8,059 bases of DNA. Origin: a virus (taxonomy: Duplodnaviria > Heunggongvirae > Uroviricota > Caudoviricetes). Position numbers and translations under genes: made by a program. The stretch lies in the IMG/VR virus record IMGVR_UViG_2576861205_000005; one strand, 5' to 3'. Shown here one piece after another: positions 2,510-8,059 of the stretch (positions are counted from its first letter, which is position 1; each line of letters begins with the position of its first letter). The notes under the pieces are model-generated. The model was not told the DNA's origin. It did no database searches and saw only the letters and a program-made list of their open reading frames with translations.

Positions 2510-2537
2510 AGCCCGCCGGTTCAGGCGGGCTTTTTTG
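2510..2537 (+). terminator. Rho-independent terminator downstream of lom
   Basis: AGCCCGCC (2510-2517), loop GGTTCA, GGCGGGCT (2524-2531), then TTTTTT (2531-2536). Confidence 0.75.
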
Positions 2538-2547
2538 TGGAGTGGAT

Positions 2548-5526
2548 ATGGCAGCAGTAAAAATCTCAGGTGTGCTGAAAGATGGTGCGGGAAAACCAAT
2601 ACAGAACTGCACTATTCAACTGAAGGCAAAGCGTAACAGCACCACGGTACTGGTGAACACGGTGGCCTCTGAAAATCCGGATGAAGCCGGGCGTTACAGT
2701 ATGGACGTTGAGTATGGTCAGTACAGCGTCACCCTGCTGGTTGAAGGTTTTCCACCTTCACATGCCGGGACCATTACCGTCTATGAAGGTTCCAGACCAG
2801 GTACGCTGAATGATTTTCTCGGTGCCATGACGGAGGATGATGTCCGACCGGAGGCACTGCGCCGCTTTGAGCAGATGGTGGAAGAGGTGTCACGTAACGC
2901 CTCCGCGGTTGCACAGAATACGGCAGCCGCGAAAAAATCAGCCAGCGATGCCAGTGCATCAGCCAGCGAGGCGGCAACTCATGCAACCGATGCTGCAGCC
3001 TCAGCACGTGCCGCCAGCACGTCAGCCGGACAGGCCGCGTCGTCGGCTCAGTCAGCGTCTTCCAGCGCAGGAACGGCATCGACAAAGGCCCGTGAAGCAG
3101 CAAAAAGTGCTGCTGCTGCAGAGTCATCAAAAAGCGCGGCAGCTACCAGCGCCAGTGCCGCGAAAACGTCAGAAACGAATGCCGCAGCGTCACAACAATC
3201 AGCAGCCACTTCTGCATCCACCGCGACCACGAAAGCGTCAGAAGCAGCCACTTCAGCACGGGATGCGTCGGCTTCAAAAGAGGCGGCAAAATCATCAGAA
3301 ACGAACGCAGCCTCGAGCGCCAGCAGCGCAGCTTCCTCGGCAACGGCGGCAGCAAATTCTGCGAAGGCGGCAAAAACGTCCGAGACGAACGCCAGGTCTT
3401 CTGAAACGGCAGCGGGACAGAGCGCCTCAGCTGCGGCAGACTCAAAAACAGCGGCTGCATTATCTGCCAGTGCCGCGTCAACAAGTGCCGGGCAGGCCTC
3501 AGCCAGTGCCACCGCCGCCGGAAAATCGGCAGAAAGTGCTGCATCGTCTGCTTCAACAGCCACAACGAAGGCTGGCGAAGCCGCTGTACAGGCCAGCGCA
3601 GCAGCGAGGTCTGCTTCCGCAGCGAAGACATCCAAGACGAACGCGAAAGCGTCGGAAACCAGCGCAGAATCCTCAAAAACGGCTGCCGCATCGTCCGCCA
3701 GTTCGGCGGCGTCATCGGCATCATCTGCGTCTGCTTCAAAAGATGAGGCGACCAGACAGGCGTCAGCAGCAAAGGGCAGCGCCACGACGGCATCCACGAA
3801 GGCGACAGAGGCAGCTGGCAGTGCGACGGCGGCAGCTCAGAGCAAAAGTACGGCGGAATCCGCGGCAACGCGCGCTGAGACAGCGGCAAAACGGGCAGAG
3901 GATATTGCATCCGCCGTGGCGCTTGAGGATGCGAGCACGACGAAAAAGGGGATAGTACAGCTCAGCAGTGCGACTAACAGCACTTCCGAGTCACTGGCGG
4001 CAACGCCAAAAGCCGTTAAGGCCGCGTATGAGCTGGCTAACGGGAAATACACCGCACAGGATGCAACGACAGCACAGAAAGGGATAGTTCAGCTTAGCAA
4101 CGCGACCAACAGCACATCTGAAATGCTGGCGGCAACGCCAAAGTCGGTAAAGGCAGCCTATGACCTTGCTAACGGGAAATATACTGCTCAGGACGCTACG
4201 ACAGCACAAAAAGGAATTGTCCAGCTCAGTAGTGCAACCAACAGCGCATCTGAAACGCTTGCCGCGACACCGAAAGCAGTGAAAGCAGCTAATAATAATG
4301 CGAATGGTCGGGTACCTTCTGCCCGTAAGGTGAATGGTAAGGCGCTTTCAGCGGATATAACACTGACGCCGAAAGATATTGGTACGCTTAACTCAACAAC
4401 AATGTCATTCAGCGGTGGTGCTGGTTGGTTCAAATTAGCAACGGTAACCATGCCACAGGCGAGTTCTGTTGTTTCAATTACGTTGATTGGTGGTGCGGGA
4501 TTTAACGTGGGGTCACCTCAACAGGCAGGTATATCTGAACTTGTTTTGCGTGCAGGTAATGGTAATCCGAAGGGGATTACTGGTGCTTTATGGCAGCGCA
4601 CATCGACAGGGTTTACAAATTTTGCCTGGGTCAATACATCTGGTGATACTTACGATATTTACGTTGCAATCGGAAATTATGCGACTGGTGTAAATATTCA
4701 ATGGGATTATACCAGTAATGCCAGCGTGACGATTCATACGTCACCAGCATATTCTGCTAATAAGCCGGAAGGGTTAACGGACGGTACAGTTTATTCACTC
4801 TATACGCCATCAGAGCAGTTTTATCCGCCTGGCGCACCAATCCCGTGGCCATCAGATACCGTTCCGTCTGGCTATGCCCTGATGCAGGGGCAGACTTTTG
4901 ACAAATCTGCATACCCGAAACTTGCAGCCGCTTATCCGTCAGGCGTGATCCCTGATATGCGTGGCTGGACGATTAAGGGCAAACCCGCCAGTGGTCGTGC
5001 CGTATTGTCTCAGGAACAGGACGGCATTAAATCGCACACCCACAGCGCCAGCGCATCCAGTACGGATTTGGGGACGAAAAACACATCGTCGTTTGATTAC
5101 GGAACCAAATCCACGAATAACACCGGGGCGCATACGCACAGTCTGAGTGGCTCTACGGGGTCTGCCGGTGATCATACTCATGGTAATGGTATTCGTTGGC
5201 CAGGAGGCGGCGGTTCTGCGTTAGCATTTTATGATGGCGGTGGGTTCACTTATGTCCAGGATTCACAGTATCAAGTAAGCCCGGGGACTTCTTCCCGTAG
5301 ATCGTATTATCAACGTATTCAGACACAGTCAGCAGGTGCTCATACCCACTCGCTGTCTGGTACTGCAGCAAGTTCTGGCGCACATGCACATACTGTAGGT
5401 ATTGGTGCGCATACGCACTCCGTTGCGATTGGTTCACATGGACACACCATCACCGTTAACGCTGCTGGTAACGCGGAAAACACCGTCAAAAACATCGCAT
5501 TTAACTATATTGTGAGGCTTGCATAA
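2548..5526 (+). CDS. stf: Side tail fibre protein (lambda Stf family), long variant with expanded Ala/Ser-rich shaft, tandem 44-aa repeats and His-x-His-rich C-terminal tip
   Basis: The ORF track starts at GTG 2542. I prefer ATG 2548, which has GGAG 5 nt upstream and gives [27 protein letters not shown]..., matching my recollection of the lambda Stf N-terminus. C-terminus ...[31 protein letters not shown]. The stop overlaps the tfa start (TAATG). Confidence 0.9.
3943..4290 (+). repeat. In-frame tandem repeat inside stf: 2.7 copies of a 132-bp (44-aa) unit
   Basis: Units begin at 3946, 4078 and 4210 (period exactly 132 nt). Encoded peptide is KGIVQLS(S/N)ATNS(T/A)SE(S/M/T)LAATPK(A/S)VKAAY(E/D)[15 protein letters not shown]. 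Copies differ mostly at synonymous positions; the third copy is truncated. Confidence 0.9.
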
Positions 5527-6110
5527 TGGCATTCAGAATGAGTGAACAAGCACGGACCATAAAAATTTATAATCTGCTGGCCGGAACTAATGAATTTATT
5601 GGTGAAGGTGACGCATATATTCCGCCTCATACAGGTCTGCCAGCAAACAGTACCGATATTGCACCACCAGATATTCCTGCTGGCTTTGTGGCTGTTTTCA
5701 ACAGTGATGAGGCATCGTGGCATCTCGTTGAAGACCATCGGGGTAAAACGGTTTATGACGTAGCGTCAGGGGACGAGTTATTTATTTCTGAACTCGGTCC
5801 GTTACCGGAAAATGTTACCTGGTTATCGCCGGAAGGGGAGTTTCAGAAGTGGAACGGCACAGCCTGGGTGAAGGATACGGAAGCAGAAAAAATGTTCCGG
5901 ATCCGGGAGGCGGAAGAAACAAAAAACAACCTGATGCAGGTAGCCAGTGAGCATATTGCGCCGCTTCAGGATGCTGCAGATCTGGAAATTGCAACGGAGG
6001 AAGAAACCTCATTGCTGGAAGCCTGGAAAAAGTATCGGGTGTTGCTGAACCGTGTTGATACATCAACTGCACCTGATATTGAGTGGCCTACGAACCCTGT
6101 CAGGGAGTAA
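5526..6110 (+). CDS. tfa: Tail fibre assembly protein (lambda Tfa family)
   Basis: 194 aa, [44 protein letters not shown]..., the same length and near-identical start to lambda Tfa as I recall it. Start overlaps the stf stop. Confidence 0.9.
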
Positions 6111-6159
6111 TCATTGGGATTATGCCGCAGCACGTCTTAAGCGAGAACGTGCTGCGGTT
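5946..6159 (+). repeat. Direct repeat copy 1 (tfa 3' end plus downstream hairpin), left flank of the cargo gene
   Basis: agtgagcatattgcgccgcttcaggatgctgcagatctggaaattgcaacggaggaagaa...cctgtcagggagtaatcattgggattatgccgcag...gtgctgcggtt recurs at 6995-7209 with scattered substitutions. Confidence 0.9.
6125..6157. terminator. Perfect 11-bp stem / 11-nt loop hairpin between convergent tfa and methyltransferase genes; putative bidirectional terminator or recombination-associated structure
   Basis: CCGCAGCACGT (6125-6135), loop CTTAAGCGAGA, ACGTGCTGCGG (6147-6157). There is no T-run immediately after the stem, so the terminator role is uncertain. It lies inside the direct repeat. Confidence 0.45.
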
Positions 6160-6164
6160 GGATG

Positions 6165-6833
6165 CTATTTTTTCCCTGAAGCGGAAAACATTACTACAGT
6201 ACCTTGAACCTTGGTTTTAACATTCTCGAAATGCTCTGAGAGTATATGTGTTAAGCCTTCTTCGGAATCTTTTGTGTTTGAAAAGATGCCTTTCTGATTG
6301 TAAATGCGCATCAGTTTTTGACCGAAGCTATTGTGCACAACTCCATCGCCAAGAATTGTGGCTCCGTATAGAGTTCCATCGTCAGTTAAGGCCTGCGCCG
6401 CATTGCGTATTACACAGCTTTTTGTAGATATATTTCCAGGCAGGCAGTGAAGAAGGTAAAACATGGAAATGGAATCAAATTGACCATGTAACGCCGCGGG
6501 ATAAGGTTCAAAAACATCATGGCTAATTTTATGTTTAATTTTTGATTCCCCAGCCCTTGTAGATGCCGCGTTCAGGCTAGCTTCGTTCAAATCCATTAAA
6601 GATATCAGACTACTCTCAGGTACGTGAGTAAGGTAAAACCCAGTTCCAACACCAATATCCAGATGGTTGTTACCTACATGTTCCAGAAAGTGTGGAAGAA
6701 GGTGTTCCTTTGTAGGACATCCCCATGCAAGCCGATTTGATACTCCCAAAACCCACCAGTCATAAAGCTTTAGGGTAAGTGGTGTGTAAATTTTAGCCCC
6801 ATCATCTGTGTTTTTTTTCATTGATTTCACCAT
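6165..6833 (-). CDS. Class I (Rossmann-fold) SAM-dependent methyltransferase, small-molecule/RNA/protein type; prophage cargo (moron) gene
   Basis: 222 aa. Motif I HLDIGVGTGFY; acidic post-I residue in ISLMD; motif II-like FDSISMFYLLHCLP; motif III-like LTDDGTLYG. Upstream YDWW...RLAW spacing resembles UbiE/COQ5-type enzymes. No DPPY/NPPY or PCQ DNA-methyltransferase motifs. Opposite strand to all phage genes. Start is ambiguous: the first ATG (6831-6833) has no Shine-Dalgarno, whereas the in-frame ATG at 6819-6821 (Met5) has GGTG upstream. Confidence 0.75.
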   Translation of the reverse strand: MVKSMKKNTDDGAKIYTPLTLKLYDWWVLGVSNRLAWGCPTKEHLLPHFLEHVGNNHLDIGVGTGFYLTHVPESSLISLMDLNEASLNAASTRAGESKIKHKISHDVFEPYPAALHGQFDSISMFYLLHCLPGNISTKSCVIRNAAQALTDDGTLYGATILGDGVVHNSFGQKLMRIYNQKGIFSNTKDSEEGLTHILSEHFENVKTKVQGTVVMFSASGKK

Positions 6834-6889
6834 GTTATAGTTTTATTTGTGAATTAAATCAATTATGGCGATGAATTACAAGGGGTTAA
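6834..6889. promoter_or_regulatory. AT-rich divergent intergenic region; candidate promoter(s) for the methyltransferase (minus) and the tfa-C fragment ORF (plus)
   Basis: 56 bp of AT-rich sequence (ttatagttttatttgtgaattaaatcaattatgg...) between two divergent starts. No -35/-10 was confidently assigned. Confidence 0.3.
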
Positions 6890-7159
6890 ATGCTGCCGCA
6901 GCATAGCGATATTGAAATAGCCTGGTATGCTTCGATACAGCAGGAGCCGAATGGCTGGAAGACCGTCACCACACAGTTCTACATCCAGGAATTCAGTGAG
7001 TATATTGCGCCACTGCAGGATGCTGTAGATCTGGAAATCGCAACGGAGGAAGAAAGATCGTTGCTGGAGGCATGGAATAAATATCGGGTATTGTTGAATC
7101 GTGTTGATACATCAACTGCACCTGATATTGAGTGGCCTGCAAATCCTGTCAGGGAGTAA
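6890..7159 (+). pseudogene. Truncated/chimeric tail fibre assembly protein: novel 35-aa N-terminus fused to the conserved Tfa C-terminal ~54 aa
   Basis: [37 protein letters not shown] then [52 protein letters not shown], against tfa ...[58 protein letters not shown] ribosome-binding site 4 nt before the ATG. It may still be expressed. Confidence 0.6.
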
Positions 7160-7209
7160 TCATTGGGATTATGCCGCAGACACGTCGTATGCAGGAACGT
7201 GCTGCGGTT
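6995..7209 (+). repeat. Direct repeat copy 2 (tfa 3' end plus degenerate hairpin), right flank of the cargo gene
   Basis: Homologous to 5946-6159. The hairpin here carries a 1-nt bulge (CCGCAGACACGT ... ACGTGCTGCGG, 7174-7207). Confidence 0.9.
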
Positions 7210-7273
7210 AGTTTGTGAGCTTTCGATAGTGGTTGTTATTTTTGCCCTTATTTGTTCCGGAGGCCATGGTTCA

Positions 7274-7444
7274 ATGGTCCGTCTGCCCCCTGTGGTGATG
7301 TCAGCAAAATCAGCCACTGCGCGAACCACAATAGCCCGGGAAGATGCTGAAGATCACCAGGTAAAGCTATCAGCGCAGAAACTGGAAGAACTGCTCGCAT
7401 CAATGGTTAAGGATGAGGTTGATCGCAATGATGGGATTTATTGA
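7274..7444 (+). CDS. Hypothetical small protein (56 aa), prophage-end ORF of unknown function
   Basis: GGAGG at 7259-7263, 10 nt upstream of ATG 7274. Product MVRLPPVVMSAKSATARTTIAREDAEDHQVKLSAQKLEELLASMVKDEVDRNDGIY. The stop overlaps a 14-codon ORF (ATGA junction at ~7428-7444). The longer track ORF from 7163 begins inside the tfa repeat, so I do not take that start as real. No family recognised. Confidence 0.25.
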   Translation: MVRLPPVVMSAKSATARTTIAREDAEDHQVKLSAQKLEELLASMVKDEVDRNDGIY

Positions 7445-7559
7445 CGTCAGCGAGAGCAGAAGGAAGAACTGAATAACCTGAATGATTTACGCTCAATCAG
7501 AGCGATGATGATTGGCAGTAATTAGCGGTCAATTTCGGTTTTTTTGGCTGTGCGCTCCC

Positions 7560-7756
7560 CGCCCAGCATTGCGCGTCAATTAGCCCCAAAAAAACGAAAA
7601 AGTTACAATCAAGTAAAAAATTCCTTCTGCAAAACTAAAAAAGATTTCAATAAAATCAGACAGTTAAAAACATAAAAAAAAGGTACAAAAAAACATCTCA
7701 AAGTCTTGTTTTTTGCTTCAAATACAATTGGTTATTGTGTTTTTTGAAACCTACCA
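7560..7756. other. AT-rich non-coding tract at the prophage end; candidate attachment-site arm (attR-type P arm) abutting the host ompW fragment
   Basis: About 200 bp with long A/T runs (cccaaaaaaacgaaaaagttacaatcaagtaaaaaatt...cataaaaaaaaggtacaaaaaaacatc...) and no ORF of 60 aa or more on either strand, immediately before the ompW-like reading frame. Confidence 0.4.
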
Positions 7757-7873
7757 GTCTGGTACATGGATATTGATACCACTGCCAATTATAAACTGGG
7801 CGGAGCACAGCAACACGATAGCGTACGCCTCGATCCGTGGGTGTTTATGTTCTCAGCAGGATATCGTTTTTAA
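7757..7873 (+). pseudogene. ompW: Displaced 3' end fragment of outer membrane protein W gene (ompW/yciD), at the prophage-host junction
   Basis: Translation ...VWYMDIDTTANYKLGGAQQHDSVRLDPWVFMFSAGYRF* matches the OmpW C-terminal beta-strand as I recall it, including the terminal aromatic. An in-frame TGA lies just upstream (7742-7744) and the sequence before ~7757 is AT-rich and non-coding, so only the 3' portion is present. Exact breakpoint not determined. Confidence 0.65.
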
Positions 7874-7887
7874 TTCCGCACAAAAAT

Positions 7888-7907
7888 GACCCCGTAATTA
7901 CGGGGTC
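7888..7907. terminator. Bidirectional Rho-independent terminator between convergent ompW fragment and downstream minus-strand gene
   Basis: GACCCCGTAATTACGGGGTC perfect palindrome, with AAAAAT upstream and AATAAGG downstream. Confidence 0.8.
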
Positions 7908-7931
7908 AATAAGGACATGGTATAAAGGGTA

Positions 7932-8059
7932 TTATTTCTTCGCTTCTACGCCATCAGTTTCAGAGCGAATTAAGAATTTCTCAGTTGTTTGCGGAATATG
8001 CTGAATTAGCCAGTCGGCCATGTGCTTTTCATCATTTAAAATCGCTTCGATAATCGGAA
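7932..8059 (-). CDS. yciE: 3' end of a convergent host gene, probably the DUF892/ferritin-like protein YciE (5'-partial; continues beyond the window)
   Basis: Minus-strand frame open to the window edge, ending ...PIIEAILNDEKHMADWLIQHIPQTTEKFLIRSETDGVEAKK* (stop is the reverse complement of 7932-7934). Convergent with ompW, as in the E. coli ompW-yciE arrangement from memory. Name assignment is from recollection only. Confidence 0.5.
   Translation of the reverse strand, partial: PIIEAILNDEKHMADWLIQHIPQTTEKFLIRSETDGVEAKK

Follow-up and report, generated by a model that had tools for sequence, protein, structure and literature searches.

An intact allele of the Escherichia coli prophage gene ybcY and its family of predicted class I methyltransferases

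This report concerns one gene in a stretch of viral DNA of 8,059 nucleotides (Caudoviricetes; IMG/VR record IMGVR_UViG_2576861205_000005), referred to below as the window, in which a minus-strand open reading frame (ORF) lies next to the tail fiber assembly gene tfa of a lambdoid prophage. Sequence comparison identifies this gene as an intact allele of ybcY of Escherichia coli, which is already named and catalogued and hence is not a new discovery, and places its product in a large family of predicted class I S-adenosylmethionine (SAM)-dependent methyltransferases. The explanation that we favor, with a probability of about 0.6, is that the gene is a moron that benefits the host, i.e., a cytoplasmic enzyme that would methylate a small molecule or a lipid and would be expressed in the lysogen from its own H-NS-modulated sigma-70 promoter.

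The allele found in the window is 99% identical at the nucleotide level to ybcY (b0562) of E. coli K-12, a pseudogene of the cryptic prophage DLP12. The gene order in K-12 MG1655 is tfaD-ybcY-tfaX-appY-ompT, whose tfa-ybcY-tfaX arrangement matches that of the window, and the promoter hexamers and the flanking hairpin are also the same at the two sites. There are two differences: the K-12 gene is broken whereas that of the window is intact, the lesion being a 2-bp deletion in a run of A residues that, in the alignment with the window, removes the codon of Met5; and DLP12 sits at argU whereas the prophage of the window sits at ompW, beside yciE-trp. Regarding the databases, the protein is 100% identical to RefSeq WP_000240999.1, a "class I SAM-dependent methyltransferase" as annotated in genomes of extraintestinal pathogenic E. 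coli (ExPEC), and PHROG holds the same gene as phrog_2132, labeled "unknown function". The gene had been put forward in an initial annotation, made from the letters of the window, as a candidate for an undescribed function, and this description does not hold for an intact allele of K-12 ybcY that already has a RefSeq accession and a PHROG entry, even though a literature search for functional data on ybcY, c0651 or the WP accessions found none. Prophages of many B2/ExPEC strains, including ATCC 11775, S88, APEC O1, and NU14, match the whole region from 5400 to 7500 with 100% identity, and in ATCC 11775 the prophage terminates at a truncated ompW adjoining yciE-yciF-yciG-trp.

Several elements of the initial annotation could be retained as they stood. 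The ORF listing contains the 222-amino acid minus-strand frame at 6165..6833; the gene is located 54 bp past tfa (5526..6110, plus strand) and on the strand opposite to J, lom, stf, and tfa; and both ORF order and base composition agree with an AT-rich cargo gene carried in the tail fiber region of a lambdoid prophage. The GC content of the ORF is 41.1% (35.9% at third codon positions), with 60-nt windows spanning from 33 to 52%, and the values for its neighbors are 54.6% for J, 55.3% for lom, 54.2% for stf, and 47.9% for tfa, so that its composition differs from that of the flanking phage genes in the manner of a moron. The AT-richness was thus correctly perceived, but the figure of ~60% GC that had been quoted for J applies only to the initial ~600 bp of the window. 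The ratio of nonsynonymous to synonymous substitution rates (dN/dS) is 0.11–0.22 against homologs having 10–35% protein divergence, and this constraint, along with the full-length match to phrog_2132, indicates a genuine gene rather than an ORF open by chance.

The maximal ORF is probably somewhat longer than the gene. Judging from the alignments, the true start is probably the ATG at 6821, encoding Met5, so that the coding sequence of this intact ybcY/b0562 allele would extend over 6165..6821 on the minus strand, with 218 codons plus the stop, and the four additional codons M-V-K-S (6822..6833, minus strand) would belong to the 5' leader. This start is preferred because Met5 is conserved in at least 90% of the family, with the majority of the homologs in an alignment of 109 sequences beginning at its equivalent; because the phrog_2132 profile opens at residue 5, its positions 1–218 aligning to residues 5–222 with E = 4e-157; and because a Shine-Dalgarno-like element, GGTGA, read in the sequence at 6830..6826, precedes this ATG by 5 nt. 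In addition, the published promoter hexamers abut the first ATG of the maximal ORF, which again favors Met5.

The assignment of the protein to the class I SAM-dependent methyltransferases, first made in the initial annotation, is now supported by the agreement of motif I, residue D81, Pfam matches, and the seven-stranded predicted fold. Motif I, HLDIGVGTG, corresponds to residues 57–65, and its G61, G63, and G65 are conserved in at least 96% of the 109 aligned sequences, while D81 is invariant and aligns with the ribose-binding Asp77 of the methyltransferase CysG; the LTDDGTLY segment occupies residues 149–156. Pfam Methyltransf_12, 23, 25, and 11 are matched above their gathering scores, and the Pfam matches as a whole (Methyltransf_11/12/23/25/31 and MTS) are all generic, as are the methyltransferases returned by a search of a viral structure library. 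The AlphaFold2 model, with a predicted local distance difference test score of 93.4 and a predicted template modeling score of 0.89, has two N-terminal helices followed by the seven-stranded class I core. On this basis, SAM binding and methyl transfer are predicted activities of the protein.

When 1.84 billion cluster representatives were searched exhaustively, 1,326 clusters were recovered at E <= 1e-3, of which 197 at E < 1e-30, nearly all of ~220 amino acids and matching over their full length. What might have been a truncated fragment of a housekeeping methyltransferase is instead a full-length member of a family of its own, to which it is assigned by the full-length match to phrog_2132, including the N-terminal lid and the C-terminal module, and by synteny. 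In the 109-sequence alignment, drawn from diverse bacteria and metagenomes, ~45 positions are conserved at 80% or more and four residues, D81, H129, G157, and D189, are invariant. The same alignment displays three conserved signatures, namely a lid motif at the N-terminus, YTP..L..YD..VL..SN...W.CPT, the segment YLLHCLPG after strand beta4, and a C-terminal module, GATILG...YN.KGIF.N..D. Profiles built separately from the lid and from the C-terminal module gave no significant match among ~178,000 sequences of solved structures, and as these two parts are without solved relatives, the regions of the protein that would determine its substrate are structurally uncharacterized. Among the family members, one is fused to a cytochrome P450 and one to an RCC1 domain, which is a weak hint regarding function, and no second Pfam domain was found in the other long forms.

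The resemblance of the N-terminal region to UbiE/COQ5, proposed at the outset, did not survive the profile searches, since no Ubie_methyltran or UbiG model was matched in either Pfam or NCBIfam; UbiG entries of the PDB match with E values of ~1e-3 to 1e-4, in the core alone. In NCBIfam, CpaM, RquA, and PmtA are matched at sub-threshold scores of about 16–18 bits, compared with cut-offs of 175–390.

Regarding characterized enzymes, the best PDB matches of the family profile are CysG/BelI, NodS, and ToxA/XrdM, in all cases over the core region only. CysG and BelI serve in the biosynthesis of cystargolide and belactosin as carboxyl O-methyltransferases that depend on a metal (PDB 9FCD and 9FCE), and in CysG the site formed by His122, His123, and Asp191 holds the catalytic divalent metal (PMC11408123). 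The His122-His123 pair aligns with H129-C130, which are invariant in the family, and a pair of this type after strand beta4 is also frequent across the superfamily. The equivalence of CysG Asp191 with the family D189 found no support in hhalign, whose alignment is unreliable in this part, and a search for a counterpart of Arg22, which binds the substrate carboxylate in CysG, found none: the lids do not align and no Arg or Lys of the lid reaches 80% conservation. A CysG-like metal site in the family is thus, at the level of sequence alignment, a lead and not a finding. The identity between CysG/BelI and YbcY is 20–24% and is confined to the Rossmann core, with the lid and the C-terminal parts unalignable; moreover, CysG and BelI are located in biosynthetic gene clusters, whereas the gene of the YbcY family is always solitary. 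Juvenile hormone acid O-methyltransferase (JHAMT; PDB 7EC0/7EBS), which acts on the carboxyl group of a hydrophobic acid, is both the best match in the PDB for the single sequence (E = 1.2e-3) and the top Foldseek match to the YbcY model (E = 3.7e-11, 21% identity), although it is an insect enzyme longer by ~50 residues, and its likeness, with a template modeling (TM) score of 0.55, is limited to the core.

The next body of evidence concerns where the gene occurs. Copies with at least 95% nucleotide identity are present in 3,832 of 5,426 complete E. coli genomes, at 4,877 places and with up to 4 copies per genome. Among 50,697 phage records only 15 carry the gene, 14 of them in an essentially full-length form with at least 98% protein identity and the fifteenth as a fragment, so that most lambdoid phages are without it; the carriers include ev243, 2G7b, the PhiR series, Kati, Turner, and phage 204576, with viable lambdoid phages among them. 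The cargo of ev243 is ordered as tail fiber, methyltransferase, short tfa, alpha/beta hydrolase, ompT, and int. In strain ABU 83972 the prophage is nearly all gone, and what was kept is tfa'-ybcY-ompT, with ybcY intact. A recent foreign acquisition, as suggested in the initial annotation, does not fit with a presence in 3,832 of the 5,426 genomes, across prophages of several types, and in viable phages as well as in eroded remnants; as far as sequence distribution tells, the gene is a long-circulating moron and not a recent arrival in the prophage of the window. Nor is the frame disrupted or poorly conserved in related prophages, most of which have it intact, the K-12 allele with its 2-bp deletion being the exception. 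The cluster of the identical 222-amino acid protein has 6,589 members, while the shortened forms, for example those of 161 and 130 amino acids, number a few hundred.

A different layout is seen in the O157:H7 strain ATCC 43888 (locus L014, 2589-6669), where the host genes of manganese catalase, yciE, yciF, and yciG lie between a prophage tfa and a block composed of the methyltransferase, tfaX, IS66, the hydrolase, and ompT. This order suggests that a prophage integrated at ompW and a DLP12-like element have rearranged with each other.

The morons lom, bor, and ompT of DLP12-type phages offer the closest comparison in terms of position, because they are, like ybcY, independently transcribed and compositionally deviant inserts of the late or b region, and ybcY is found together with lom in the window, and together with ompT and bor in both DLP12 and ev243. 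They differ from it in that they encode outer-membrane proteins with demonstrated host phenotypes, whereas the ybcY product is a cytoplasmic enzyme.

In the window, the gene is contained in a ~1.05-kb cassette bracketed by direct repeats of ~226 bp that are spaced 1,049–1,050 bp apart. A repeat search placed the left copy at 5934..6159 (plus strand), where it consists of the 3' end of tfa and the downstream hairpin, and the right copy at 6983..7209 (plus strand), 89% and 86% identical to the left one (repeat families D1 and D2). The upstream neighbor and donor of the repeat homology is tfa, identified by its match to phrog_105 (E = 1e-100) and its RefSeq annotation. Between the convergent stop codons of tfa and the methyltransferase, RNA folding predicts a hairpin with an 11-bp stem (6125..6157), a candidate bidirectional terminator or insulator, with folding energies of −29 kcal/mol on the plus strand (z = −4.4) and −24.6 kcal/mol on the minus strand (z = −4.2), and no U-tract was found beside it on either strand.

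At the other end of the gene, the sigma-70 promoter of ybcY, TTGATT-17-TATAAC, is found at 6834..6862 (minus strand), exactly where the published hexamers fall, and these hexamers are conserved between the window and K-12. They derive from a genomic systematic evolution of ligands by exponential enrichment (SELEX) study with the K-12 RpoD holoenzyme, which reported a constitutive ybcY promoter, a divergent tfaX promoter, and an H-NS site in the ybcY/tfaX spacer (PMC3946193). As for the loss of transcription that had been raised as a possible objection, a promoter has therefore been mapped, in vitro, by this same RpoD SELEX work (PMC3946193). The spacer that corresponds to the H-NS site reported in K-12 is, in the window, the divergent interval between the methyltransferase and a tfaX-like ORF (6834..6889; 56 bp, 26.8% GC). 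A consensus scan also marked a second promoter-like site, TTAACC-16-CATAAT, at 6862..6889 (minus strand), in a scan whose number of sites was no higher than that in shuffled sequence; this putative promoter would yield a leader of ~34 nt that includes the Shine-Dalgarno element.

Beyond the spacer, an ORF of 89 amino acids and TfaX type (6890..7159, plus strand) matches phrog_2341 over its full length (1–88 of 88), and is composed of a unique N-terminus of ~38 amino acids joined to the C-terminal ~50 amino acids of a tail fiber assembly protein. The full-length phrog_2341 match and the promoter of its own mapped by SELEX in K-12 indicate that it is a recurrent unit and not random debris. The unit from 6160 to 7209 is covered at 80% or more in 3,426 genomes, compared with 3,799 for the methyltransferase alone, and from these figures the methyltransferase and the TfaX-type ORF usually travel together.

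Three further observations relate to this cassette. The TfaX-type ORF is called a pseudogene by the Prokaryotic Genome Annotation Pipeline (PGAP). The same pipeline calls a "hypothetical protein" of 45 amino acids at 6083-6220 (plus strand), which goes by the name "nucleocapsid protein" in derivatives of K-12. This frame runs over the tfa stop codon and the hairpin into the 3' end of the methyltransferase gene, and is almost certainly a spurious call. Finally, a candidate small RNA of E. coli, Rfam family RF02111 (IS009), matches in full length with 223.8 bits at 5869-6067 (plus strand), inside the 3' portion of tfa, where it overlaps the left direct repeat, and the right repeat may hold a second, diverged copy.

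Outside E. coli, the family was explored by a species scan using one genome per species, by inspection of the gene calls at ~30 loci, and by flank analysis of 80 species-representative loci. Relatives exist in at least 576 species belonging to Proteobacteria, Acidobacteria, Cyanobacteria, Firmicutes, Actinobacteria, and Myxococcota. In distant taxa such as Pseudomonas and Dyella, the gene and its flanks have the same GC content, and in E. coli, Klebsiella, and Enterobacter the gene is 4–11 points lower; many bacteria thus appear to have the family as a native gene, of which an AT-rich lineage seems to have turned mobile in Enterobacterales. The contexts of this AT-rich lineage comprise E. coli prophages, a KfrA/CcdAB plasmid backbone, segments flanked by insertion sequences, and small islets. 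The association with tail fiber genes, which had been noted as worth mapping, is real in E. coli, where the gene is nearly always beside tfa or a tfa fragment, but it does not extend further, because tail fiber assembly genes are nearby in only 5 of the 80 loci, all from Escherichia and Shigella. Neither the ~30 inspected loci nor the clustered flanking ORFs of the 80 loci contain a partner conserved across genera. This, together with the lack of tail genes outside Escherichia and Shigella, means that the function is independent of phage genes and of an operon partner.

Some apparent partners were examined and discarded: a cluster of short-chain dehydrogenases from 12 loci has variable positions, at chance level; a cluster of ORFs from 37 loci consists of antisense ORFs over the methyltransferase gene itself; and a CPBP/Rce1-like downstream gene of Yersinia and of one Salmonella contig was not found at the other loci by tblastn. 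Seven Pseudomonas species have, ~120 bp after the methyltransferase and on the same strand, an ORF of ~230 amino acids similar to crotonase/enoyl-CoA hydratase (about 4770-5480, plus strand, in loci L055, L057, L058, L060, L063, L064, and L067), a synteny within one genus that is a possible hint of acyl or fatty acid chemistry. In a Testudinibacter sp. of the Pasteurellaceae (locus L018, 5001-6589), the homolog ends an AlpA-type island and adjoins ompW, the host gene that the prophage of the window has entered, an adjacency that is probably a coincidence, although ompW may be a recurrent integration site.

Two groups of relatives reside on virulence elements. The first is a homolog 64–66% identical to the protein of the window, found on 603 Klebsiella plasmids and often in two copies; the representative BAH65943.1 of pK2044 (WP_011251259.1) is 65% identical over the full length. 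It has the lid and C-terminal motifs of the YbcY family and is likewise solitary, AT-rich, and on a mobile virulence-associated element, but it is plasmid-borne, beside rmpADC and iro/peg-344 genes, and not phage-borne. In pLVPK/pK2044-type plasmids the block reads iroN, peg-344, rmpC, rmpA, and methyltransferase, with the homolog immediately upstream of, and divergent from, rmpA-rmpD; it is located at 2525-3178 in pvirulence_VBA34918 (locus L029) and at 5001-5654 in locus L021. In three studies of genomic association, BAH65943.1 is given as a statistical marker of liver-abscess, hypervirulent, or hypermucoviscous isolates, in each by linkage alone (PMC5126061, PMC9372168, PMC9846069). The analogue cited in the Klebsiella papers is Rv1405c of Mycobacterium tuberculosis, an acid- and nitric oxide-induced, virulence-associated methyltransferase that may belong to the YbcY family.

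The second is pVAPA_0470 of Rhodococcus equi, located in the vap island between vapG and virR, which hhalign identifies as a family member (99.9%, E = 2e-37). At 34% identity it preserves the YbcY-specific C-terminal module and a remnant of the lid, W.CP, but its motif I has GARSAW in place of GVGTGY, and it lacks the Asp that binds the ribose and is otherwise invariant. From these losses the protein probably no longer binds SAM and is, as read from its sequence, probably a pseudo-enzyme. It is conserved across all three types of the island (A, B, and N), where it diverges from virR, and has been suggested to have "a potential regulatory role" (PMC5434932). In pVAPA1037 (locus L033, 10174-10998, minus strand) the frame stays open for another ~47 codons ahead of the RefSeq start, as far as MNIRDND..., and since this upstream stretch includes the W.CP lid motif, the annotated start of pVAPA_0470 is probably wrong.

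From these relatives one could propose that the YbcY family is a mobile methyltransferase for host adaptation, repeatedly recruited into virulence elements and equipped with an H-C...D metal site like that of CysG/BelI, a proposal that we consider speculative. If it were true, the recruitments would be those into E. coli prophages with lom/ompT, into the Klebsiella plasmid by rmpADC, and into the R. equi vap island by virR, and a methylated metabolite, lipid, or host-derived compound would alter fitness, signaling, or the envelope in the animal host.

The reading that we prefer, that of a moron of benefit to the host, can now be given in full. The product would be a soluble class I enzyme of ~24 kDa, in which a lid of two N-terminal helices and a C-terminal insertion complement a Rossmann core, a layout known from methyltransferases that act on small molecules or lipids. 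The likeliest reaction, by similarity, would be carboxylate O-methylation or amine N-methylation of a metabolite or xenobiotic, and we lean to these two chemistries because of the resemblance to CysG/BelI, JHAMT, NodS, and PmtA/PMT; DNA, RNA, or a phage protein would be less likely substrates. The gene lies antisense to the late operon as a monocistronic unit that would be transcribed from its own sigma-70 promoter, with the AT-rich, H-NS-bound spacer carrying the promoter and the stable hairpin standing between the gene and tfa. Expression would presumably come from the lysogen, to the advantage of the host rather than of the virion. The spread of the cassette is envisaged to occur by homologous recombination, as the repeats of the tfa 3' end could allow the methyltransferase and its TfaX-type companion to move among lambdoid phages, the tfa module of the tail fiber region being a probable highly recombinogenic site. 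Of all this, the sequence analysis shows the identity of the gene, its fold class, conservation, purifying selection, distribution, locus architecture, promoter location, and independence from phage genes, and the substrate class, expression from an intact allele, the benefit to the host, and the route of recombination are deduced.

Several points weigh against this reading. The broken allele of K-12 has no known consequence. Transcription and translation of the intact allele are predicted, as are the SAM binding and the methyl transfer. The substrate class is deduced from architecture and weak similarity, as the lid and the C-terminal module have no solved relatives, and the fold scores form a flat plateau in which the RNA modifiers CmoA, Trm9, and METTL6 have nearly the same Z. 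Asp191 of CysG could not be aligned to the invariant D189 by hhalign, in an alignment that is unreliable past residue ~160. The binding of H-NS suggests that the gene may be silent in laboratory conditions. Regarding the recombination route, a search for empty sites with a synthetic junction returned only occupied sites among its best 25 matches.

Of the alternatives, an RNA methyltransferase that would modify host tRNA or rRNA, and thereby translation, for example against a toxin, an antibiotic, or a competing phage, is the one that fares best, even if its chances are low. Mobile, solitary, and self-promoted methyltransferases on plasmids and phages are typical of resistance rRNA methylases, and the median isoelectric point of the family is 8.75. 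However, the protein of the window has a value of 6.9, no RNA-binding extension or partner gene was found by Pfam searches or by clustering of the flanking ORFs, and no family model of rRNA or tRNA methyltransferases was matched in Pfam or NCBIfam; furthermore, a lid that closes over the pocket is typical of small-molecule enzymes, and the fusion of one family member to a P450 also speaks against RNA.

Rather improbable, too, is a PmtA/PMT-like N-methyltransferase of phospholipids or phospho-bases, acting on phosphatidylethanolamine or phosphoethanolamine and altering the membrane of the lysogen. Phosphatidylethanolamine is the major lipid of E. coli, several phosphoethanolamine N-methyltransferases are among the top fold matches, and one PDB entry, 4krh, is the only profile match that enters the N-terminal lid (query residues 15–156), in addition to the weak NCBIfam match to PmtA. 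This last match (NF045882) scores 15.7 bits against a cut-off of 390, the TM scores of 0.67–0.71 are within the flat plateau common to dozens of unrelated small-molecule methyltransferases, and the sequence identity is only 16–18%. E. coli isolates with an intact gene are not known to contain methylated phosphatidylethanolamine or phosphatidylcholine, which also counts against such an activity.

It is similarly doubtful that the gene is a neutral hitch-hiker or a decaying remnant, kept by linkage to the tail fiber module and ompT. The pseudogene of K-12, the clusters of shortened 161- and 130-amino acid variants, the loss of the SAM-binding motif in the R. equi relative, and the binding of H-NS to the promoter region are all compatible with decay. 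The selective constraint is not, with a dN/dS of 0.11–0.22 maintained over 10–35% of protein divergence and ~45 positions conserved at 80% or more across the 109 sequences; in addition, the intact 222-amino acid cluster is by far the largest, and in ABU 83972 the gene was kept intact, beside ompT, where most of the prophage was deleted.

The position by tfa would be explained if the enzyme methylated the tail fiber, Tfa, or another phage or host protein, yet this is quite unlikely in spite of the nearly constant proximity of tfa or a tfa fragment in E. coli. The gene is on the opposite strand, with its own promoter and outside the late operon; beyond Escherichia and Shigella, which account for the 5 of 80 loci that have tail genes nearby, it resides on plasmids, in islets, and at native chromosomal sites; and its linkage to tfa is accounted for by the flanking tfa repeats. 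Least credible of all is a DNA methyltransferase or a component of anti-restriction or defense, since, although prophage cargo slots often hold defense or anti-defense genes and the PADLOC models gave one marginal match (mad2, E = 0.009, 12.9 bits), this match is not significant, partner genes are absent, no Pfam DNA-methylase family is matched, the 218 amino acids leave no room for a target-recognition domain, and a motif scan confirmed the absence of DPPY, NPPY, and PCQ from the protein, as the initial annotation had reported.

A few features of the window are separate from the methyltransferase. The segment at 7163-8059 is the junction between prophage and host. It contains a tail fiber fragment with DUF4376 (about 7256-7525), as well as ompW, represented by a 3' fragment at 7748-7873, and yciE on the minus strand, whose 3' end takes up 7932-8059; the ompW fragment and the yciE end at this junction indicate that the prophage integrated into ompW. 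An inverted repeat of 15 nt (7533-7547 and 7586-7600) is present near the end. The middle of stf (2850-4000) is a long low-complexity stretch rich in Ala, Ser, and Thr, which yields several spurious ORFs of 250–370 amino acids in other frames and on the opposite strand.

As a gene annotated in thousands of genomes that behaves as an ordinary prophage moron, ybcY is of modest interest in itself, and the fact that K-12 is a natural null for it may explain why it was never studied. At the same time, it encodes a constrained and intact enzyme present in ~70% of E. coli genomes, its relatives in Klebsiella and R. equi adjoin master regulators of virulence, and finding its substrate would annotate thousands of genomes. 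Knowing this substrate would also settle whether the marker gene of Klebsiella contributes or is a passenger.

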